Counted from the first letter of the stretch, positions 9,166 through 44,912 are shown. The stretch: DNA of 56,771 nucleotides from Acidimicrobiia bacterium (GCA_012270885.1 JAAXHN010000043.1:1-56771), one strand, 5' to 3'. A program made the numbers and translations. The notes: generated by a model from the sequence alone, not told the origin.

Positions 9166-10154
9166 TCCGAGTACTCCGCAAGGTCGAGACTCTCCCGGAT
9201 CCGCCTGGCGATCAGGCGCTCGTCCGAGATCATGGCCGCTTCCAGTTCCCGGGCGAAGGGAATCGGAGTTGCCTTGCTACCGGCGCGAAGGGGCGGCGCA
9301 TCCAGCTCGTCGAACCCCTCGGCCACCACCCTGGCGACCAACTCCCCAGCCCAGCCACCCCTCTCCACGGCTTCGTGGGCCACGACCAATCGATGGGTGC
9401 GGGAGAGAGACTCCAGGACGATCTCGACATCCATGGGCACCAGGGTCCTCAGGTCGATCACCTCGACCGAGACGCCCTCTTCCTCCATCTCGAGAGCAGC
9501 CGCCAGGGCCTGATGGACGGATTTGCCCACCGCGGCCACGGTGACGTCTTCCCCCCGGCGCCTGACCACTCCCTGTCCGAGCGGGATGGGTGCCACCGGG
9601 TCGGGTACCGGTCCCGTGGTCCTGTAAAGAGCCCGATGCTCGACGAACAGCACCGGGTGCTCCAGTTCCACTGAGGTCTTGAAGAGGCCCTTGACGTCCT
9701 GGGGTGTGGAGGGCACCGCCACCGCCAGCCCGGGGACGTGCAGGAACCAACTCTCCAGGGTCTGGGAGTGCTGCGAGCCGTGGTGGGTGCCAGATCCCCC
9801 CTGGGTCCTGATGACCATCGGCGCCCGCAACTGGTCACCGGACATGTAGCGCATCTTGGCGGCGTGATTCACGATGGCGTCCATGCCGCAGGCAACGAAG
9901 TCCATGAACATGACCTCGACGATGGGCCGCATCCCCGTCACCGCCGCTCCCACCCCCGCGCCGAGCATCGACTGCTCGGCAATCGGCATGTCGCGAACCC
10001 GGTGACCACCGAATCGGCGAACGAAGTCCTGGGTGGCTCGGAACACCCCTCCGTAGGAACCGATCTCCTGTCCCATGATGAACACCCGGTCGTCTGACGC
10101 CAGGGCCTCGGCCTGAGCCTCCCGTACCGCCTCGATGAAGGTGATCTCCCGCAT
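9162..10154 (-). CDS. TPP-dependent dehydrogenase E1 beta subunit (pyruvate/acetoin type)
   Basis: DMPIAEQ, EVMFMDF, SQHSQ, IDLRTLVP. Confidence 0.95.
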   Translation of the reverse strand: MREITFIEAVREAQAEALASDDRVFIMGQEIGSYGGVFRATQDFVRRFGGHRVRDMPIAEQSMLGAGVGAAVTGMRPIVEVMFMDFVACGMDAIVNHAAKMRYMSGDQLRAPMVIRTQGGSGTHHGSQHSQTLESWFLHVPGLAVAVPSTPQDVKGLFKTSVELEHPVLFVEHRALYRTTGPVPDPVAPIPLGQGVVRRRGEDVTVAAVGKSVHQALAAALEMEEEGVSVEVIDLRTLVPMDVEIVLESLSRTHRLVVAHEAVERGGWAGELVARVVAEGFDELDAPPLRAGSKATPIPFARELEAAMISDERLIARRIRESLDLAEYSE

Positions 10155-11197
10155 CAGAAGCTCCCCTCCAGCGCGGTTCGGGGATCAGCAAACGGAGACT
10201 CGGCGGCGAATCTCGCGGCATCATCGATCTCTTTGTCAACAGCGGCCTCGATACCGGCGAGGGCGGCCAGTTCCAACCGGCCGGATACGGCCTGGCGGAA
10301 CCGGTGGAGAGGATCGTTCCGGCGGGCCTCCTCCACCTCCCGGCGATCCCGGTAGAGGTGCTCGGCGTCACCCAGATTATGACCCCGCCATCGGTAGCAC
10401 TTGGCCTCGATCAGGGTGGGACCATCCCCGGCCCGCGCCCGCTCCACCGCGGTCTCGGCCGCCGCATACACCGAGAAAACATCGATCCCGTCCACCACCA
10501 CACCCGGTATTCCGTATCCTTCCGCCCGCGACGCGATATCGGGGTTCAACTGCATCTCATCCGCCCGGAAAGAGTGAGCGTATCCGTTGTTCTCCACCAC
10601 GAAAACCGCCGGCAGGCGCCAGATAGCCGCCAGGTTGAGCGTCTCGTGAAAGACCCCCTGCCCAACCGCCCCGTCCCCCAGGAAGGCCACCGCGACGAGG
10701 GGGTCCCCCCTCAGATCGAAACTCAGGGCCGCTCCCGTGGCCAGCAGGCCGCTTCCCCCGATGATGGGACTCTGACCGATGAACCCGTGCTCGGTGCTGA
10801 CGATGTGCATCGATCCGCCCTTTCCCCCGCAGTACCCCGTGGCCCTACCCCACAGTTCGGCGCAGATCGGTCCGAGTTCGGCACCCTTGGCTATCGCATG
10901 CCCGTGGCCGCGGTGAGTCGAGGTGACCACGTCACTGGTCCTGAGAGCGGCGCACACCCCCGCCGGGATCGCCTCCTGCCCCATCGAGGAGTGGAAAGGT
11001 CCGTACAGGTCTCCGGCCAGGTGGGCGCGTTCCATCGTTACCTCGAACCGCCGGATGGTGTACATGGTCTTGAAGATCTCGAGAAGCCGGGCGTCGCTCA
11101 AGCCGTGAAACTTGGTGCCCCTAGCAGGGGTGCTGCCACCCCGGTCGGCTACGGGAGGGGAAGTAACCGAGGAGATGAGGCCGGCGCCCTCGGTCAT
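10154..11197 (-). CDS. TPP-dependent dehydrogenase E1 alpha subunit (acetoin/pyruvate type)
   Basis: GQEA, STHRGHGH, GKGGSMH, TPP motif GDGA...VENN, YRWRGH. Confidence 0.95.
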   Translation of the reverse strand: MTEGAGLISSVTSPPVADRGGSTPARGTKFHGLSDARLLEIFKTMYTIRRFEVTMERAHLAGDLYGPFHSSMGQEAIPAGVCAALRTSDVVTSTHRGHGHAIAKGAELGPICAELWGRATGYCGGKGGSMHIVSTEHGFIGQSPIIGGSGLLATGAALSFDLRGDPLVAVAFLGDGAVGQGVFHETLNLAAIWRLPAVFVVENNGYAHSFRADEMQLNPDIASRAEGYGIPGVVVDGIDVFSVYAAAETAVERARAGDGPTLIEAKCYRWRGHNLGDAEHLYRDRREVEEARRNDPLHRFRQAVSGRLELAALAGIEAAVDKEIDDAARFAAESPFADPRTALEGSF

Positions 11198-35863: not shown

Positions 35864-35972
35864 AGCACTGCATGTTAGCCCGCCCGCCCGGTAGGGTAAA
35901 TCTCATGTCCCTCTCATGTTTTGCGTGCATGCTTGCAGAGACAGTCGATATGGGGATGAGCGAATCACGGCA

Positions 35973-36830
35973 GTGAGAGAACACCAACGGCAAACAATCA
36001 CTACCAATCGGGGAGCAGGGGTCAGCGCGATCAACCGGCCCGGATTTCGACCCATCGCCTTCCTTTTCGTGCATGGACTGGCCTCCAATGCCCGGCTCTG
36101 GGACGGCGTTGCCGACCACCTCGCGTCACGAGGCTATCCGTCGGTGGCTGTGGACCAACGCTCTCACGGGCTTTCCGAGGACGTGGACGGACCCTTCGAC
36201 TTCGCCACGCTCGCCGATGATCTGCTCTCAGTGATAGACGAGGCTCTTCCTCCCGAAGCTCCGGTGATCGCGGCGGGCCAGTCCCTGGGTGGAAACGTGG
36301 TGCTTGAGCTTGCCTACCGCCACCCGGCCCGAATCGCCGCCTTGGCTTGTATCGACGGGGGGTTCATTACGTTGAGCAGGGCGTTCCCCGATTGGGAGAC
36401 GGCGGCCCGGGAACTGGCCCCTCCGTCCTTTGACAAGGTGCTCTACACCGACTTGGAGAAGAGGCTCCGAAAGCGCTACTCCGACTGGCCCGAGAGCGGC
36501 GTCAAGGGGCAACTCGCCAACTTCGAGATAGCAGCGGACGGAACTATCCGTCCCCATCTGCAAAGGGACCATCACTTTCGACTGCTGGAGGAGATGTGGA
36601 AGCATCAGCCGTGCGAGATCGCTCCCTCCCTTCAACAACCGGTCCTGGTCATCGCCACCACACAGACCGTGGCCGGGAGAGCCGCCAAGCGGGAAAGCGT
36701 TTCCCGCTTCGCCAATCTTCTTCCCAGCGGCCGGGTGATGTGGCTGGACGCACACCATGACCTGCATGCTCAATATCCTCGCCTGACCGCCGGTTGGCTC
36801 GAGGAACTGGCGCGAGAGGTGTCCCCATGA
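35973..36830 (+). CDS. Alpha/beta fold hydrolase
   Basis: HGLAS, DQRSHG.S, GQSLGG nucleophile elbow, C-terminal HHDLH. Start uncertain (ORF from 35916; GTG 35973 chosen). Confidence 0.85.
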   Translation: MREHQRQTITTNRGAGVSAINRPGFRPIAFLFVHGLASNARLWDGVADHLASRGYPSVAVDQRSHGLSEDVDGPFDFATLADDLLSVIDEALPPEAPVIAAGQSLGGNVVLELAYRHPARIAALACIDGGFITLSRAFPDWETAARELAPPSFDKVLYTDLEKRLRKRYSDWPESGVKGQLANFEIAADGTIRPHLQRDHHFRLLEEMWKHQPCEIAPSLQQPVLVIATTQTVAGRAAKRESVSRFANLLPSGRVMWLDAHHDLHAQYPRLTAGWLEELAREVSP

Positions 36831-37987
36831 GTGCCGGACGGCTCATCCTGATGGGGTCGGGGGAGGTCTCCAATCGCCTGGTGGCCGCCCATCGGCTGGG
36901 AGTCGAGCGGGCCGGCGCCCGGGAGGCGGTGGTCTTGGACACTCCCTACGGATTCCAGGAGAACGCCCCGCTCCTCTCCGAACGACTCACCGGTTTCTTT
37001 CGGACCAGCCTGTCCATCAACGCCGCAGTCGCCTCCTATCGCTCCACCTCGGAGGGAGAAGTCGCCCGCGAAAGGATGCTGGCCACCGTCCGCCGGGCCC
37101 GCTACGTCTTCGCCGGGCCCGGTTCGCCCGGCTATGCGCTGGCAACCTGGCGGGAGACGGGACTGGCGGCAGAACTGCGGAAGCTCCTCGCCGAAGGCGC
37201 GACCGTCACCTTGGCCTCGGCCGCCGCCCTCACCGCCGGATCCAAGACCCTGCCCGTCTACGAAATATTCAAGGTCGGCGCCGGGCTGGAATGGTTGGAA
37301 GGGCTGAACCTCACCGCTCACCTGGGCTTGGAGGCAGTGGTCATACCCCATTGGAACAACACCGAGGGCCAGGGGTTCGACACCAGCCGCTGCTACATGG
37401 GACGGCGTCGCTTCCAACGGCTACGGGCCATGCTGCCCGAGGGACTGGGAGTGATCGGAGTGGATGAGCACACCGCTGCCACCATCGACTTCGGGACCGA
37501 AGAGATGAGTGTGATGGGAGCGGGAGGGGTCACCTTGAGCGGAGCGGACGACATGTTCGTGGCCGAGGGAGAAGCGATAGCCTTGGACACGATGTTCAAG
37601 CTCCTGGAGAGCAGCCCCCCCGCACCGCCCCAAGAAGGCCTCGGGGCCCTCCCCGATCTCACCGAGGCCAAGGCCGCCCGGTCGGCCGAGAAAATGGCCG
37701 AGGCCCTGCTCCGGCTGGAGTCAAAGGCTGCGGATGGATCTCTCCATGCTCGGGAGTCCTTGAGGTCCGCGCTGTTGGAGATATCGGAGTTGGCGGTGTC
37801 CGGCCTGGTGGAGCCGGCCGAGTGGGTGGGAGGCTACGTGGAGTTACTCGTTGAAGCAAGGTCCCGCCTCCGCGCCCAGAAGCGGTGGGAAGAGGCAGAT
37901 GGGATCCGTTCCGGTCTGGAGAGACTGGGGGTGACCCTCCAGGACGGCCCTTCAGGGACCACCTGGATACTGGAAGAACAGGGATAA
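36827..37987 (+). CDS. Peptidase S51/cyanophycinase-like (type 1 glutamine amidotransferase fold) protein with CysRS-like C-terminal domain
   Basis: LMGSGE, FAGPGSP, ASAAA nucleophile elbow, IPHWN, GVDEHTA. C-terminus R...RAQKRWEEADGIR..L...GVTLQDGPSGTTW. ATGA overlap with the hydrolase. Confidence 0.8.
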   Translation: MSAGRLILMGSGEVSNRLVAAHRLGVERAGAREAVVLDTPYGFQENAPLLSERLTGFFRTSLSINAAVASYRSTSEGEVARERMLATVRRARYVFAGPGSPGYALATWRETGLAAELRKLLAEGATVTLASAAALTAGSKTLPVYEIFKVGAGLEWLEGLNLTAHLGLEAVVIPHWNNTEGQGFDTSRCYMGRRRFQRLRAMLPEGLGVIGVDEHTAATIDFGTEEMSVMGAGGVTLSGADDMFVAEGEAIALDTMFKLLESSPPAPPQEGLGALPDLTEAKAARSAEKMAEALLRLESKAADGSLHARESLRSALLEISELAVSGLVEPAEWVGGYVELLVEARSRLRAQKRWEEADGIRSGLERLGVTLQDGPSGTTWILEEQG

Positions 37988-38008: not shown

Positions 38009-38692
38009 ATGAATGCCGGACGGCTGTTGGTTGTGGAGGACGACCCGCGGGTACGTGAGTCGTTGCAGCGCGCCCTGCATCTGGAGGGATTCGATGTAAC
38101 TACTGTGACAGACGGCCTGGCGGCGCTGGAGAGAATCGCTTCCGGCTCCCCCGACGCCGTCATCCTGGACGTCAGCATGCCGTTCCTGGACGGGTTGGGA
38201 GTGGCCCGGAGGATGCGAAAGGACGGGGATACCACACCGATCCTGATGCTCACCGCCCGCCACGAGGTGACCCATCGGGTGGCCGGACTCGATGCCGGCG
38301 CCGATGACTATCTGGTAAAGCCATTCGCGCTGGAAGAGCTTTTGGCCCGCATACGGGCCCTGCTGCGCCGCGGGGGGATCTACGGACAGAGCCAACCCAT
38401 GCGGCTGGCTGACCTGTCCGTCGACCCAGGCTCCCGGCGGGTGTTCAGGGGAAGGCGTGAGATCATCCTGACCAAGACGGAGTTCGACCTTCTGGAGTTG
38501 CTGGTTTTCAACGCCAGGATCGTGCTGCCGCGGGATGTGATCATGGATCGGATCTGGGGTTATGACTTCGCAACCAGTTCCAATCCCCTGGAGGTCTACG
38601 TTGGATACCTTCGCCGGAAGTTGGAATCCGGAGGGGAGACCCGGTTGATCCACACGGTGCGGGGAGTGGGGTATGTAGCGAGGGATTCATGA
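38009..38692 (+). CDS. OmpR/PhoB family response regulator (MprA-like)
   Basis: [42 protein letters not shown]. Confidence 0.95.
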
Positions 38693-40092
38693 GCATCCGC
38701 TGGAGATGGGCCCTGAGCCTCGGTCTGGTGGCCGCCGTGGCTGTCGGTCTCACTACCTGGGCAGCCACCTTGTCTGCGGCGCAGGAACTCCGGGGAGCGG
38801 TAAACGTCGATCTCCAAGAACAGGCCTCTCACCTGCAGGAAGACGCCGAGGAACTGGCCGATGAGCCACATGGCCACGAGGGTGACGCGGGATCCCATGG
38901 TGACGGGGGTCCGCATGATGACTGGCATTCACGGATGGTGGACCCTGGCTTCTTCCTTCAGGTCTTTGACCAGGACGGTGCAGTCGTTCTGCAGACAGGC
39001 CCCGGCGATGTGACTCTCCCAGTCGAGCCCACCGATCTGGCGACGGTCAACGGTACCGGCGGCCCAACGATACGGGACATTCAAGTCGGCGATGTGACCT
39101 ACCGCATGCTCACCAGCAGACTGCACCACCCGCCGCCCGAGATCCCGTCCGCCGCCGGGTTCCAGATTGCCAGTGACATGTCCCGAGTCAATGCCAATGT
39201 GGCAGGGTTCACCCGTCGGATGCTCCCGATCGGCGTTGTCGGCATCCTTCTGGTAGGACTGACCGGCTGGGCGCTGGCTTCTCGCGCAGTTCGACCGATC
39301 ACCGACCTAACCGAGGCCGCCGAACAGATAGCCGCCACCGAGAGACTGGATGCAGGAGTCAAACTCGACCGCTCAGCCCCCGGGGAGATAGGTCGCCTGG
39401 CCGCCGCCTTCGCATCGATGCTGTCCTCATTGTGGGCGTCCAGGCGGGAACAACAGCGGTTGGTATCCGATGCGGGACATGAGTTCCGGACACCCATCAC
39501 GGCCCTCAAAACCAACCTCGAGACGCTCCTCCGCCAAGACCAGACTCTTTCCGATTCCCAACGGCTCGAAATAGCTGAGGCCGCCCTGACGCAATCGAAC
39601 CAGTTGGGGGATCTTGCAACCGAACTGGTGGACCTCGCCACCGATGTGCACCACAATGATGAGGAGGTCACCGAGATAGACCTGGGCGAACTCGCCGCAG
39701 ACGTGGCGCAACGCTTCCGTGGGGTGGGCCACAAAGAGGTAGTGGTCTCCGGAGAGGGCGCGGCATTGAGAGGAAGGCGTTCACAACTGGACAGGGCACT
39801 CGGAAACCTGGTGGACAACGCTGTCAAATGGGCAGCCGCCAGAGTGGAGATAAACGTCGAGGGCGGGACGGTCACCGTAGTGGATGATGGTCCCGGCATA
39901 CCCGAAGGCGATCTCCCATACGTTTTCCGTCGCTTCTACCGCTCAAGCCAAGCGAGAGGTACCCCCGGCTCGGGGTTGGGGCTAGCAATCGTGGAGCATC
40001 TCGTAGGCGCCCACACAGGAACCGTTTTCGCCCGGAACCGAGCCGGTGGGGGTGCCGAGGTGGGTTTTACTCTCCCAGTGACCGAAGGCTGA
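38689..40092 (+). CDS. HAMP-domain sensor histidine kinase (MprB-like)
   Basis: Two TM helices, HAMP, H-box [10 protein letters not shown]-box [26 protein letters not shown]. Confidence 0.95.
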
Positions 40093-40232
40093 GGCACGGC
40101 CGGATCGAAGGGACGCCCCCCTCCTTTCTGCTACCCCACGGCCAGAGGCGGCACGATGCGGATTGGATGACGGGCGGCTTCCGAGTCAATCCGGGACCAT
40201 CGGCACAGATCGTTCGGAGGGGGGATTCACAA

Positions 40233-41240
40233 TCAGCGGGTGAAGTAGAGCAGAAACTCCATGACCCCGTGGTCCTCCACGGAGATGACGCTGGCAGACG
40301 TCGGCGTGGGCACTCCGTAGTCGCTGAATACCACCTCGCTCGATCCCGCCACCACTATGGCGTTGCCCACCAATCGGGCCTTCAAATCGAACGCCGCCCG
40401 GTTCGTAACCCCCTTTATCGAGAGTTCGCCATGGGCCGTTCCTGAGAACGTATCACCCCCGAACACACCGATGGGCAACTCCACGGACTCGAGGAGCGTG
40501 AAGACCGCCAGCGGAAACTCCCTGGTGTTGAGGGCCTGCCGCATGTGGCTGTCACGGTGGCTGTTGTCGGTGCGCAACGTTGCCAAATCGACCTCCACCC
40601 TCGCAGCCACCAGGTTGGCGTCTGCCAGTTCGATGGAGCCGGCCAGATCGGCGGTACGGCCCACCGCAGTGGACTCGGCGACCCGGCCCACCAGCACCTC
40701 CACCACCCGGAATCCGGCGAAGCTGACCGCGGGCTCCCCCGGCATGCCCTCGGCGCTGTCGGGTATCGCCAAGGTCCACAAACCGGCGAAGGCCTCCGGG
40801 TCGGGGCCGGCCGATGTCGTCTCTGTGGCGCCTGTGTCCGTCGATGGTGCGTCGGCGGCGGGCTCGGCAACCGGAGGGGTGTCCGATGAGGTCGTTGTAG
40901 CAACTGTGTCTGTCGGTGGGGTGTCGTCGGTCGTCGGGAGATCCGGCGAGCCACCCGAAGCGTTGATGGCGATGTCGGTGTTCATCGTTTCTGCTTCGAC
41001 GCCCGCGCCAGTTGACAGCTCACCGTCGGGGCCGGTTGTCGATGTCATGCCGGGGTTCTCGGAGAGCCGGGTGGCCGGCGAAACATCGATATCGTCGAGG
41101 GAAGCTGCCTCGAGTTGGGCTACAGCCGCCTCCAAGTCAACGGCTTCGGGACCATCGTCGATCCACCACAAGAGAGCAGCGGTCGCCAGAGTCACGATCG
41201 CGACTCCTGCCCAGATCGAGATCTTGACGAACTTCTTCAT
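40233..41240 (-). CDS. Membrane-anchored YceI family lipid/polyisoprenoid-binding protein
   Basis: N-terminal TM, long T/P/D/S/A-rich linker, YceI domain (GFRV.E, VDLATLRTDN..RD, FP.A.F, GELSIKGVT). Confidence 0.85.
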   Translation of the reverse strand: MKKFVKISIWAGVAIVTLATAALLWWIDDGPEAVDLEAAVAQLEAASLDDIDVSPATRLSENPGMTSTTGPDGELSTGAGVEAETMNTDIAINASGGSPDLPTTDDTPPTDTVATTTSSDTPPVAEPAADAPSTDTGATETTSAGPDPEAFAGLWTLAIPDSAEGMPGEPAVSFAGFRVVEVLVGRVAESTAVGRTADLAGSIELADANLVAARVEVDLATLRTDNSHRDSHMRQALNTREFPLAVFTLLESVELPIGVFGGDTFSGTAHGELSIKGVTNRAAFDLKARLVGNAIVVAGSSEVVFSDYGVPTPTSASVISVEDHGVMEFLLYFTR

Positions 41241-41386
41241 CTATTTGTCTTCTTGCAAAGTTTGTCTCTCACCCGTTACCGAGACCGATGTCTCTGCCGC
41301 CCCGAAGGTGGGCAGCCACCGTGCGAGAGAATGAAGATAAGCACAACCGGGCCGTAGGAACTGCGCGTCCCTTTCTTTAGGAGTAG

Positions 41387-41424
41387 GAACGGGTCCCGGG
41401 GGAGGAAGTCCCCGGGACCTGTTC
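41387..41424. terminator. GC-rich hairpin downstream of the His-rich gene
   Basis: GAACGGGTCCCGGGG / CCCCGGGACCTGTTC inverted repeat, 15 bp with one mismatch. Confidence 0.6.
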
Positions 41425-41457
41425 GCACAAGCGGCAGAGTGAAGGTGATGCGGTTGC

Positions 41458-41970
41458 TCAGTGGCCGTGACCATCATCCTCATCTTCAGAATGGGTATGA
41501 GCAATCTCCGCCTCGGAGTGGGTGTGAGGAATACTCTCATCAGAGTTCGCATAACTGCCGTCCTCCGCATGCGTATGATCGCCCTCCTCATCCTCAGAGT
41601 GCATGTGAGCAACACCCTCATCAGAGTGGGTATGGGCAACACCCTCATCAGAGATCGCATAACTGCCGTCCTCCGCATGCGTATGATCGCCTTCCTCGTC
41701 AGAGTGCATGTGAGCAACACATTCCTCCGAGTGGGTGTGAGCAACACCCTCATCAGAGATCGCATAACTGCCGCTCTCCGGATGCGAATCACTGCCAATC
41801 TCCCCGGCGGTAGCGCTACCCACCACCACATCGGTCAGCGCTGCTTCCGGAACGGCCAGGCTTTTGTAATAGTCTCCACCCGTCACCGGGTCGGAGCCTG
41901 CTTCCGCCAATGCCAGGGAGGCAACCCCCAGCAGCGCTACCACGCACGCCGGAAGAATCGCTTTGCGCAT
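41458..41970 (-). CDS. Secreted His/Asp/Glu-rich repeat protein (putative metal-binding)
   Basis: ATG 41970 preceded by GGAGAAGGAC. Signal peptide MRKAIL...ALA. 170 aa with 19 His, including nine HxH motifs. Confidence 0.8.
   Translation of the reverse strand: MRKAILPACVVALLGVASLALAEAGSDPVTGGDYYKSLAVPEAALTDVVVGSATAGEIGSDSHPESGSYAISDEGVAHTHSEECVAHMHSDEEGDHTHAEDGSYAISDEGVAHTHSDEGVAHMHSEDEEGDHTHAEDGSYANSDESIPHTHSEAEIAHTHSEDEDDGHGH
41470..41790 (-). repeat. Three imperfect tandem repeats of 105-108 bp built from about 27-bp subunits
   Basis: GCATAACTGCCG recurs at 41549, 41657 and 41762. Encodes GSYA(I/N)SDE.(V/I).HTHS...AH(M/T)HS.. Confidence 0.92.
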
Positions 41971-42022
41971 GTCCTTCTCCTTTCTGTCGCGGACCATGCA
42001 CCAACCACCATCCCAGCCCATC

Positions 42023-42061
42023 CTGAACCGCCCCTGAGATAAGGCTGAACACCCGATGAGA
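42023..42061 (-). promoter_or_regulatory. Four direct repeats at 11-bp period (OmpR/MprA-box-like)
   Basis: Minus strand TCTCAT-N5-GTTCAG-N5-TCTCAG-N5-GTTCAG, ending about 52 bp upstream of the His-rich gene start. Confidence 0.65.
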
Positions 42062-42109
42062 AAGATGGCGAGGGGCCCGGCGGTAACGTCCCCAGGCCGG
42101 ATCTGCCGG

Positions 42110-43672
42110 CTAGAAGCTTCCCAACTCTCCCAGCCGGATCCGGTCGACCGCCATGATCAAGAGCGTCACGGTCGCCGCCAACACCACCGCCATCGCCATG
42201 GCGCCGGTGTAGCTGACCGCCCCCGGGCGTCCCAGCAGCCGGAAGATCAGGGCGGGCACGGTGATGGTGTCGGGACGGGCTATGAAGGCCGTGGCGCCGA
42301 ACTCCCCCAGGGAGACCGCCGCCGCGAACCCCGCCCCCACCGCCACCGCCCGCGCCGCGATCGGCAGGTCGACCTCCCGAAACACCCGCCAAGGAGAGGC
42401 CCCTAAGACGGATGCCGCCTCCCGCAGGCCGGTCCCGACCGAGCGGAGCATGGGGGTGACCGTCCGCACCACGAACGGCACGGCCACCAGGGCGTGGGCA
42501 AGCGGTACGAGCACCACCGTGGCTCTCAGGTCAACCGGCCAGTCCAGGGCCACCAGCATTCCGAATCCCACGGTCACCGCCGAAGCGCCCAGCGGCAGCA
42601 TCAGCACCACATCGAACCACCGGGCTGCTCGGCCCTTGCCGGAAACTATCACGGTTGAAGCGCACAATCCCACCGTCACCGCCACCACCGCGGTGGCCCC
42701 GGCGTACAAGAGCGAGTTGACCATCGCCCGACCGGGCGTCACGGCCAGCGGGCCCGGGTCCGCCACGAAACGCCAGCCGGCTCCGCCGGAGCGGAGCGAG
42801 CGGACCACCAGCATTACCAGGGGAACCGCCAGGGCCCCGAGGGTCCCCCAAACCGCCGCTCCAACCCCCAATCGCTCCCCAAGACTCTGTGGGCGCTGCA
42901 GGTTGCGGATCTCCGCCTCCAACTCCAGTCCCACCGCTGTGCGCTCCTGGTAGCGGGAATACCAGGCCAGCACCGCGGTCACCCCCACCAGTTGCAGTAT
43001 GGCCAGGGCGGCCGCGGCGGGAAGGTTCAAAAACACCACGGTCTGCTGCCAGATCTCCACCTCCAGGGTTCGGTATCGAAGCCCTCCCAGGATGAGCACC
43101 ACCCCGAAGGAGGTGAACGTGAACAGGAAGACGATGGCCGACGAAGCGGCCAGGGCCGGGCGGAGGAGCGGGAGGGTCAGCTTCCAGAACACCTGGCGGG
43201 GGTTTGCCCCCAAAGTCCGGGCGGCCTCGAACAGGGACCGGTCGATCCTGGCCCACACACCTCCCACAGTGCGCACCACGACCGCCACGTTGTAGAAGAC
43301 ATGGGCGGCCAGGATGGCCCACACGCTTCCTCCGATTCCCAACGAGAGAAAGGCCGACGCCACCACCACCGTGGGCAACACGAAGGGCGCGGTCACCAGG
43401 GCCTTGGCCAGGGCGCGGCCCGCAAACCTGAACCTCGCGACGGCCCAGGTGATCGGGGCGGCGGCCACCAGGGTCAAGACCACCGAGGCGGCGGACTGCC
43501 ACACCGAGAACCACAGAGCGCTCCGTAACCCCGAGTCCGCTAAGACCTCCCCGAAGGCACCGAACGCTCCCTCCTCCCCAAGGGAGAGGCCCAGGATGCG
43601 AGCCAGGGGATAGAGGAACAGGTAACCCAGGAAGGCCACCGCCACCCCTGCGGCCACCCAACGGTAGGTCAT
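42110..43672 (-). CDS. thiP: Thiamine ABC transporter permease
   Basis: Duplicated permease with two EAA loops (FEAARTLGA, REAASVLGA) and PFVLPTVVVA; follows thiB. Confidence 0.9.
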   Translation of the reverse strand: MTYRWVAAGVAVAFLGYLFLYPLARILGLSLGEEGAFGAFGEVLADSGLRSALWFSVWQSAASVVLTLVAAAPITWAVARFRFAGRALAKALVTAPFVLPTVVVASAFLSLGIGGSVWAILAAHVFYNVAVVVRTVGGVWARIDRSLFEAARTLGANPRQVFWKLTLPLLRPALAASSAIVFLFTFTSFGVVLILGGLRYRTLEVEIWQQTVVFLNLPAAAALAILQLVGVTAVLAWYSRYQERTAVGLELEAEIRNLQRPQSLGERLGVGAAVWGTLGALAVPLVMLVVRSLRSGGAGWRFVADPGPLAVTPGRAMVNSLLYAGATAVVAVTVGLCASTVIVSGKGRAARWFDVVLMLPLGASAVTVGFGMLVALDWPVDLRATVVLVPLAHALVAVPFVVRTVTPMLRSVGTGLREAASVLGASPWRVFREVDLPIAARAVAVGAGFAAAVSLGEFGATAFIARPDTITVPALIFRLLGRPGAVSYTGAMAMAVVLAATVTLLIMAVDRIRLGELGSF

Positions 43673-43727
43673 CTGCACCCTGCGGACCCGACCCGCATCC
43701 GGTCAGCGTTGCGTCCGAACAGACCGG

Positions 43728-44756
43728 CTATCCCAGCACCAACTCGGTCCACTCCTCTATCCACCGTTCTCGATTCTCATCGATCAACCCAGGATCCACG
43801 GACGCCGGTTCCTCGGGCAGCGCGGTGTGTTCGACGAATTCTGGAGGCAGGGAGGCATCCGTGTTGGCCGGGAACACGAACCACGTGAGGGGGATCTGCT
43901 CCTGGAATTCCACCGACAACATGTAGTCGATCAGGTCGCCGGCCGCCTCGGGGTACTCGGTCCCCTCCAGGATCCCGGCGAACTCGATCTGGCGGTAGCA
44001 GCCTTCCGTCACCACCCCGGTGGGGGCGATGTCGGTGGGCGGATCGGAGTAGATCACCTCGGCCGGCGGAGAGGAAGCGTAGGAGACCACCAGCGGGCGG
44101 TCGCCTCCCCATCGGGTGAAGGAGGCGTAGTAGGCGGTGTCCCAGTCGGGAACCACTTCCACGTCGTTGTCCACCAGGGCTTGCCAGTAGTCCTTCCAGC
44201 CGTCCTCCCCGAACACCGCTATGGTGGTGAGCAGGAACGCCAGCCCCGGGGAAGAGGTGGCCGGGCTCTCCACCACCAACTGGCCCCGGTAACGCTCGGT
44301 GGTCAGGTCCCGCAGGTTGCGGGGCGCACCTGCATCCGCGATCACGCCCCGGTCATAGTTGAGGCACACGTCGCCGAAGTCGATGGGAGTAACGCGGTTC
44401 TCGGAGTCCAGACGGATGTTCTCGGGAGTCTTGTCCAGCAGGTCGGACCGGTGGGAGCGGAAAATGCCGGCGTCCAGGGCCCTGGAAAGGAAGGTGTCGT
44501 CCACCCCGAACAGCACATCGGCAAGAGGATTGTCCTTGGTCAGGATGGCCTGGTTGACCAGGGAGCCAGTGTCTCCCGCCGGCACGATCTCCACCGCGAT
44601 GCCGCTCTCGGCCGTGAACGAAGCAAAGGTCTCCTCGGTCACGCCCCCTCCGAAGGAGTCGTGACTGATGATTGTCAGGGTCTCGGGATCGGCATCTCCG
44701 CAGGCTCCCAGGGCCAAGGCCGTGATGATGATACCGACCGCCAGTTTTGCACGCAT
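43728..44756 (-). CDS. thiB: Thiamine ABC substrate-binding lipoprotein
   Basis: Lipobox LGAC, HDSF, GVDDTFL, PATSSPG, W..AY, SYASSP, YRQIE; TPP riboswitch upstream. Confidence 0.93.
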   Translation of the reverse strand: MRAKLAVGIIITALALGACGDADPETLTIISHDSFGGGVTEETFASFTAESGIAVEIVPAGDTGSLVNQAILTKDNPLADVLFGVDDTFLSRALDAGIFRSHRSDLLDKTPENIRLDSENRVTPIDFGDVCLNYDRGVIADAGAPRNLRDLTTERYRGQLVVESPATSSPGLAFLLTTIAVFGEDGWKDYWQALVDNDVEVVPDWDTAYYASFTRWGGDRPLVVSYASSPPAEVIYSDPPTDIAPTGVVTEGCYRQIEFAGILEGTEYPEAAGDLIDYMLSVEFQEQIPLTWFVFPANTDASLPPEFVEHTALPEEPASVDPGLIDENRERWIEEWTELVLG

Positions 44757-44811
44757 TGGGGGCTCCTTGTCTTGTGCAGGGAGCCCGAGAAACTGGGTGT
44801 CTCTCTGTCAG

Positions 44812-44908
44812 AGAGCTTCCTTCGCCGGCATTACCCGGATCAGGTGCTAACGGTCGGAGGAACACATCCTCCCTCTCAGCCCGGTCTCACCGAGCTCCCG
44901 TGTTTGCT
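44812..44908 (-). ncRNA. TPP riboswitch (thi-box)
   Basis: Minus strand GGGAGCTC..GGGCTGAGA..GACCGTTAGCACCTGATCCGGGTAATGCCGGCGAAGGAAG. A downstream hairpin (44760-44786) can sequester the AAGGAG SD of thiB. Confidence 0.95.
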
Positions 44909-44912
44909 GGCC

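Follow-up and report, generated by a model that had tools for sequence, protein, structure and literature searches.

Comparative analysis predicts a direct-repeat operator connecting an OmpR-class two-component system with a secreted histidine-repeat protein gene in uncultured marine Acidimicrobiia

A contig of an uncultured marine actinobacterium of the class Acidimicrobiia (GCA_012270885.1, JAAXHN010000043.1:1-56771; the whole stretch of 56,771 nucleotides is referred to here as the window) encodes a two-component system close to a gene for a YceI-domain protein and a gene for a secreted protein built of histidine-rich repeats (Table 1). The first-pass annotation of this window described a histidine-rich loop in the sensor kinase and proposed that the kinase senses nickel, zinc, copper, cobalt or pH through this loop and induces an extracellular metal sponge. 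The locus thus raises the question of whether these genes form a regulatory unit and, if so, whether metal is what the kinase senses and what the secreted protein binds. Our overall reading, which we hold with as much reserve as conviction, is of an autoregulated OmpR-class system whose main local target is the gene for a small secreted protein, the product being a candidate metal-buffering polyanion. Membership in the OmpR/PhoB class is clear from the receiver and winged-helix domains of the regulator and the HisKA and HATPase_c domains of the kinase encoded alongside, all with Pfam scores above the cut-offs, and the two genes overlap by 4 bp. The closest named records of the genome (G000 below; a 2.6-Mb assembly, 94% complete) are metagenome-assembled genomes of uncultured Acidimicrobiia.

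The promoter of the His-repeat gene bears on the first part of the question. The direct repeats that the first-pass annotation had pointed out there are four in number, with YTCA cores at 42060, 42049, 42038 and 42027 on the minus strand, a spacing of exactly 11 bp. Downstream of them come a conserved GTGCATGG block and then the ribosome-binding site, and an alignment shows all of these elements kept in each of the eight species of the genus that were compared, against a background of divergent intergenic sequence. Three consecutive YTCA cores at 11-bp spacing occur nowhere else in the 2.6-Mb assembly. A full 44-bp score matrix was overfitted and recovered its own site alone, and simple repeat patterns were used instead. 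Scanning with a score matrix of the 11-bp repeat unit identified a second, two-repeat site in the region divergent from purA, at the head of the gene string that comprises the hydrolase, the cyanophycinase-like gene, the regulator and the kinase. The corresponding motif, AAATCTCA(G/T)G..TCTCA(G/T)G, is found at the same place in seven of eight species of the genus. A site ahead of a regulator's own gene string is the usual signature of autoregulation, and the two-component system is predicted to be autoregulated. A scan of 40000-42150 returned neither a consensus promoter nor a terminator.

The operator is also widespread beyond the genus. The pattern TTCTCA-N7-YTCA-N7-YTCA is present in 139 of the 301 genomes of the order, compared with 6 of 301 for its reversed control (these tallies include genomes flagged unpublished, namely G218, G027, G038, G267 and G295, on which no specific claim depends). 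Half of the operator sites fetched (15 of 30) lie within 3 kb of a regulator 61-68% identical to the one described here, or of its kinase, and two of these 15 are directly upstream of the regulator gene. Linkage with YceI also recurs, in two other families (f5 and f8). Most of the other genes found 3' of the order-wide operators code for one of three kinds of product: a small secreted acidic protein, a lipoprotein (with YceI next in line) or a small Cys/His protein. Given the conservation of the operator and its recurrence both ahead of the system's own genes and next to homologous systems in the order, it is very probable, on comparative grounds, that the regulator controls the His-repeat gene. 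As a side observation, the operators of families f7 and f12 (L044-L047, L050, L053-L055) precede a conserved, zinc-ribbon-like protein of about 65-88 amino acids with a C..C...C.VH motif, whose gene adjoins the homologous regulator in L053-L055; this protein may be another regulon member.

Within the genus, the His-repeat gene is present in 3 of 17 species (G000, G012 and G009). In the sister species G003, G005, G006, G007, G008 and G010, the same operator stands ahead of a gene for a different protein of about 150 amino acids, which we refer to as the slot protein. All genomes of the genus with the kinase carry either the slot gene or the His-repeat gene (9 of 9), compared with one of the eight without the kinase (G004, which has a partial relative lacking the operator). 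Because these genomes are related to one another, the co-distribution lends support without amounting to a statistical test. In G006, the operator and the slot gene are still found downstream of the thiamine permease, with the two-component system about 2.5 Mb away; operator and target have been retained far from the system, which indicates that the regulatory link does not depend on adjacency. The same distance could also be taken as a sign that the neighborhood is coincidental, such that the two-component system regulates neither the His-repeat gene nor the YceI gene and the repeats are no binding site. The convergent orientation of the kinase and YceI genes and the position of the His-repeat gene downstream of an unrelated thiamine ATP-binding cassette (ABC) operon would fit such a coincidence. 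However, the operator is conserved, is found again ahead of the regulator's own genes and near homologous systems, and is in strong excess over the reversed control; together with the strict co-distribution of the kinase with the slot gene, this makes coincidence highly improbable. A separate observation concerns G003 (L037; G003:C1, about 9895-10715), where the kinase match is limited to residues 192-465 and no regulator match was found in locus L037, although neither the slot gene nor its operator is damaged; this species may be losing its two-component system.

The regulated slot thus encodes two kinds of protein, and their comparison bears on what the His-repeat protein is. The most likely start codon of its gene is the ATG at 41970, which comes after GAAAGGAGAAGG and coincides with the start of the homologues. 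The product has a signal-peptide-like N terminus and exactly nine HxH motifs, as first described, with 19 His and 38 Asp plus Glu among its residues. Genome-wide, at least nine HxH motifs occur in 10 of 16,680 stop-to-stop frames of at least 80 amino acids. (Two further short frames of this genome, C7:3194-3487 and C169:30028-30348, hold 11 to 12 HxH motifs, the latter being broken by an N run.) The protein matches no Pfam family at E values up to 10, and its NCBIfam matches cover the signal peptide only and fall under threshold. A collection of 5.8 billion proteins yielded two relatives only, and none was confirmed in scans of genome contigs and Joint Genome Institute (JGI) metagenome contigs.

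The slot and His-repeat proteins share a common promoter, a signal peptide (MRKAIFA...) and about 50 similar N-terminal residues (LEEVLxDLV versus PEAALTDVV). Past this N terminus, the slot protein is helical and acidic, carries three DGxITxxE motifs and has a basic tail of Gly and His; the His-repeat protein consists of a 105/108-bp tandem repeat in 2.6-2.9 copies with a 27-bp sub-repeat. Comparison of the two genes shows that, in the G000/G012/G009 clade, the slot gene beyond its first 50 or so residues has evidently been replaced by an expanding repeat rich in HxH and in Asp/Glu. The number of repeat copies is one in the His-repeat protein P0002, 2.6 here and about four in G012. The ESM Atlas model of the His-repeat protein has a predicted local distance difference test (pLDDT) score of 0.41 and a predicted template-modeling score of 0.21. 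The shared promoter and N terminus, the tandem repeat and the low pLDDT together mark it as a recently evolved exported His-rich polyanion, probably disordered, that took over an existing regulated slot. Its composition makes metal binding plausible, and we lean modestly toward it. In assemblies, the His-repeat gene is a breaking point: the G009 copy contains an N run (L008:9110-9214) and a second partial copy ends a contig (G009:C4:1-291), and contigs from a public run break inside the repeat (window 41576-41744), with doubled depth.

The slot protein itself belongs to a family of 23 unnamed database members. Its model is of moderate quality (pLDDT 65.4), and Foldseek ranks the EF-hand proteins centrin, calmodulin and troponin C highest, none of them significant (best E value 0.4, template-modeling score at most 0.42). 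Identity with CpxP, Spy or ZraP was considered for both the slot and His-repeat proteins and rejected, as neither has an LTXXQ or Metal_resist match at E values up to 10; the same Pfam search returned only sub-threshold DUF2680 and SHOCT-like matches, and for the slot protein the fold search brought up nothing beyond the weak EF-hand rows.

The YceI gene, described at first pass as a membrane-anchored neighbor of the two-component pair, is indeed such a gene (PF04264, 61.6 bits versus a gathering score of 23.7). It is convergent with the kinase gene rather than divergent from it, so the two have no common promoter region. YceI occupies this position in G000, G012 and G009 only, the three species with a His-repeat gene. 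In five genomes of family f5, an operator is followed by a lipoprotein gene and a membrane-anchored YceI gene, divergent from a homologous regulator, and in G084 (family f8) the operator and the regulator have YceI immediately upstream. YceI is so common in the order that adjacency in a single genome means little; recurrence in three arrangements means more. Families f5 and f8 lend independent support to a functional tie between YceI and the two-component system. For E. coli, an excerpt of PMC7657598 reports that CpxR targets yceI directly. The chances that YceI belongs to the regulon here are about even, and its co-transcription with the His-repeat gene is possible.

The second part of the question is whether the kinase reads metal through its loop. 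Hydropathy identifies two hydrophobic segments in the kinase, at approximately residues 7-28 and 177-200. The His-rich stretch, which the translation confirms, lies between these two membrane segments and is therefore extracytoplasmic, as had been claimed. Its DNA contains an 18-bp tandem repeat in 2.3 copies (38881-38922). An AlphaFold2 model of residues 1-215 (pLDDT 79.7) has a long helix leading from the first transmembrane segment, the His loop, a PAS/PDC-like sheet and the second transmembrane segment, and pLDDT is below 50 at loop residues 65-80. Such a loop, with six His in 23 residues among Asp, Glu and Gly, could bind Ni, Zn, Cu or Co (or protons) directly and so provide the primary signal that induces an extracellular sponge. 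The confinement of the His loop to species that also carry the His-repeat target would agree with this, as would the best NCBIfam models of both proteins, which are the heavy-metal subfamilies TIGR01386 (cztS_silS_copS) and TIGR01387 (cztR_silR_copR), the kinase aligning over its full length. However, both scores fall far under the heavy-metal cut-offs (152.7 versus 292.55 bits for the kinase and 209.2 versus 279.2 for the regulator), and Foldseek matches the sensor domain to generic extracytoplasmic PAS/PDC sensors, with WalK and SrrB above metal sensors and with CzcS (5gpo) and CusS (5ku5) only at ranks 9 (E=6.5e-3) and 20 (E=1.4e-2).

The distribution of the loop also speaks against its being the primary sensor. 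Length and composition at the loop position differ in nearly every orthologue: an acidic His-containing loop is present in G000, G012 and G009 and absent from G005, G006, G007, G008, G010 and G033. Seven of 22 database homologues of the kinase have an acidic His loop, with one to six His and only PH(D/G)DW(H/E)S kept, and two more distant homologues have a Met/Gly-rich loop in its place. Many relatives without any His loop retain the system and the operator, with other targets. Because the loop is a clade-specific insertion at a variable position in a sensor that operates elsewhere without one, it is unlikely to be the core sensing element and looks instead like an add-on, which may contribute metal or pH input. 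Direct metal sensing through the loop is therefore doubtful, and we consider it unlikely that it provides the primary signal. Thus, the regulatory link that the first-pass annotation drew between the kinase and the His-repeat protein stands on the conserved operator, but the disordered, hypervariable and clade-limited loop is not supported as its sensing element. In an observation of its own, two family f5 kinases (L039:8931-10331 and L040:9678-11081), each with a lipoprotein-YceI operon as neighbor, have PIMGMGMGIGG at the variable loop position.

A system that answers to envelope or secretion stress in general, like MprAB or Cpx, and has envelope-protective proteins as its targets would require no metal at all, the His-richness of the loop and the target then being a by-product of repeat expansion without a metal-specific role. 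Both His-rich stretches are indeed tandem DNA repeats, small secreted proteins, lipoproteins and YceI make up most of the order-wide targets, and the closest solved structures to the regulator are M. tuberculosis PrrA (219 bits) and PhoP (208 bits). MprAB resembles the system in being an actinobacterial OmpR-class pair with an extracytoplasmic sensor, and a homologue with a 48% identical sensor region, P0022, is automatically named MprB by JGI. In mycobacteria, the HtrA-like protease gene pepD lies directly downstream of the MprAB kinase gene. The M. tuberculosis MprA box, which we take to be two 8-bp TCTCAGGG-like direct repeats with 3 nucleotides between them, would have the same 11-bp period as the operator here. 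However, the gene after the kinase at this locus is the convergent YceI gene, with no pepD/htrA-type protease gene, and the motifs given in excerpts for C. glutamicum MprA (TKTTAAGAAM; PMC12113857) and Streptomyces CutR (TAWATAAA; PMC12802291) are unlike the operator. A profile search of genome contigs with the kinase alignment returned mainly unrelated kinases, and the Mycobacterium loci among them (L112 and L113) are not MprAB-like.

According to the excerpt cited above (PMC7657598), CpxAR belongs to the OmpR class, regulates itself and switches on an accessory protein that is small and exported; cpxP and yceI are both under the control of CpxR, a layout that the system described here would share. 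However, the match of the kinase to the CpxA model covers the cytoplasmic core only (131.9 bits versus a cut-off of 486), and neither the His-repeat protein nor the slot protein matches the LTXXQ/CpxP family. The nine regularly spaced HxH pairs, moreover, are kept across copies and species and look selected rather than drifting. On balance, a stress system with no metal-specific role seems rather improbable to us, if worth keeping in mind.

The pairing of an OmpR-class system with a regulated exported protein is nonetheless known in kind, from SilRS/CusRS with SilE/PcoE, CpxAR with CpxP/yceI and ZraSR with ZraP, and by sequence it is a member of none of these. The first-pass annotation knew of no description of this combination, and we likewise found none for Acidimicrobiia among the papers that the literature searches listed, but SilE/PcoE, ZraP and CpxP/yceI are precedents for the concept. 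SilE/PcoE has a promoter of its own, which an OmpR-class two-component system controls. ZraP is an exported metal-binding accessory protein with His-rich ends whose gene lies beside, is controlled by and feeds back on a two-component system, in which ZraR is an NtrC-type sigma-54 activator and not an OmpR-type regulator. Unlike ZraP, the His-repeat and slot proteins have no LTXXQ or Metal_resist domain. The His-repeat protein resembles SilE/PcoE in its signal-peptide-like N terminus, predicted disorder and composition rich in metal ligands; it differs in having no sequence relation to them and in using HxH and Asp/Glu rather than Met-containing motifs. The host envelope is also of the Gram-positive (actinobacterial) type, no efflux pump genes are adjacent, and the kinase and regulator score under the cut-offs of the heavy-metal subfamilies. 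SilE-type small, exported, disordered His-rich proteins have been proposed as a first-line metal sponge, as stated in an excerpt of PMC5008109.

Our reading of an autoregulated system with a metal-buffering output can be set out as a sequence of steps. The regulator would recognize direct repeats of the form (Y)TCTCA(G/T)G placed 11 bp apart. The four repeats about 50 bp upstream of the His-repeat gene occupy a position typical of an activator site overlapping the -35 region, so that activation of the kinase and phosphorylation of the regulator would turn this gene on. YceI would probably be expressed by read-through from it. The His-repeat product would be exported by the Sec pathway and stay in the envelope as a disordered polyanion, where it may buffer divalent Zn, Ni, Cu or Co by binding them through its HxH pairs, and YceI may contribute a lipid- or isoprenoid-binding envelope function. 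Our best guess for the kinase signal is a cation or envelope stress; in this clade, the loop may provide an additional metal (or pH) input of low affinity or contact the system's own product.

Several points weigh against this reading. Binding by the regulator is predicted from motif conservation and metal binding by the His-repeat protein from composition, and His-rich acidic low-complexity sequence can arise by repeat expansion with no need for a selected metal function. The His of the kinase loop are poorly conserved even inside the clade. The repeat-unit matrix scan found no operator ahead of the YceI gene, and a hairpin separates this gene from the His-repeat gene in G000 and G009, although not in G012; YceI may therefore be transcribed separately. 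YceI domains also occur in 245 of the 301 genomes of the order. Finally, the comparison indicates that the G000/G012/G009 clade gained the downstream YceI gene and an acidic, His-rich sensor loop alongside the His-repeat gene. The co-occurrence of the three is a single evolutionary event in one clade and thus not independent evidence.

A more speculative interpretation, which we regard as a long shot, is that the variable loop of the kinase and the secreted protein encoded behind the operator have been co-evolving as a pair. The cation-loaded protein would contact or compete with the loop and so feed back on the kinase, and the swap in the slot, from an acidic EF-hand-like helical protein to the His-repeat protein, together with the tandem duplication in the loop, would re-tune a conserved chassis to a new cation. 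If so, this would be a modular route to new sensor specificity. Target gene and sensor loop have both been rebuilt by tandem-repeat expansion in one genus, which makes the evolution of a sensor-target pair directly testable. To our knowledge, almost no regulation has been studied experimentally in Acidimicrobiia. If the prediction holds, it would define an operator, a regulon and a likely output for a two-component family widespread in uncultured members of this class. Regulated, disordered and His-rich extracytoplasmic proteins would then gain one more example, new and unrelated in sequence. In practical terms the importance is modest, since the concept of pairing a two-component system with an exported sponge or accessory protein is not new.

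Table 1. Features of the locus in window coordinates, and loci of the slot protein gene in related genomes
Feature	Coordinates	Strand	Basis or remark
Two-repeat operator (predicted), AATCTCATGTCCCTCTCATGTT, purA-divergent region	35899..35920	+	11-bp repeat-unit score matrix scan
Alpha/beta hydrolase, first gene of the plus-strand string	35916..36830	+	Pfam Abhydrolase_1 7.1e-19; true start probably further downstream
Cyanophycinase-like gene with CysS_C-like tail, ending 21 bp 5' of the regulator gene	36794..37987	+	matches weak, under family cut-offs
OmpR/PhoB-class response regulator	38009..38692	+	Pfam Response_reg 1.3e-31, Trans_reg_C 4.7e-24
Sensor histidine kinase: first transmembrane segment, extracytoplasmic PAS/PDC-like domain, second transmembrane segment, HAMP, HisKA, HATPase_c	38689..40092	+	
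His/Asp/Gly-rich loop of the sensor domain, residues 58-80	38860..38928	+	translation; 6 His in 23 residues
Membrane-anchored YceI-domain gene with long Thr/Pro/Asp/Ala-rich linker	40233..41240	-	PF04264 1.4e-16, residues 173-312; N-terminal hydrophobic segment
Spacer from His-repeat to YceI gene, with GC-rich hairpin GGTCCCGGGGA..TCCCCCGGGACC lacking a T-tail	41241..41457	-	sequence
Secreted His/Asp/Glu repeat protein, 170 amino acids, 2.6-2.9 copies of a 105/108-bp unit	41458..41970	-	
Operator (predicted), four direct repeats TTTCTCAT, TGTTCAG, ATCTCAGG, GGTTCAGG, exact 11-bp period	42022..42063	-	
Slot protein loci (related genomes)	L037:9307-9762, L009:8483-8935, L033:6767-7270, L035:2930-3595, L153:1566-2040		

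The remaining neighbors of the two-component pair include no metal efflux, oxidase or chaperone genes, the locus being made up of purA, the hydrolase, the cyanophycinase-like gene, YceI, the His-repeat gene, a thiamine ABC transporter and NucS. The cyanophycinase-like gene sits between the hydrolase and the regulator and is probably on the same transcript as both; in G005, G006 and G008, neither it nor the hydrolase gene is at the locus, and the regulator directly follows purA. The ABC genes upstream of the His-repeat gene (42110-44756) encode a thiamine-type binding protein (43728-44756) and a fused double permease (42110-43678), both on the minus strand. A thiamine pyrophosphate riboswitch precedes them at 44800-44911 on the same strand (62.7 bits versus a gathering score of 54.3). 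The thiamine importer is riboswitch controlled and unrelated to the module; its permease gene is followed not by an ATPase gene but by the His-repeat gene. Contigs from a public DNA run match the window, each listed piece differing by zero to two letters, and runs labeled coral reef metagenome contain about half of the words sampled. Three RNA runs carrying the same species label yielded zero reads on the window, which says nothing about expression. Elsewhere in the same genome, C215:6241-7290 (minus strand) encodes a cation-diffusion-facilitator-like membrane protein with a very His-rich N terminus, HHATHDHHSHDHDDHSGHDHHGHGHHGHDHSHD.

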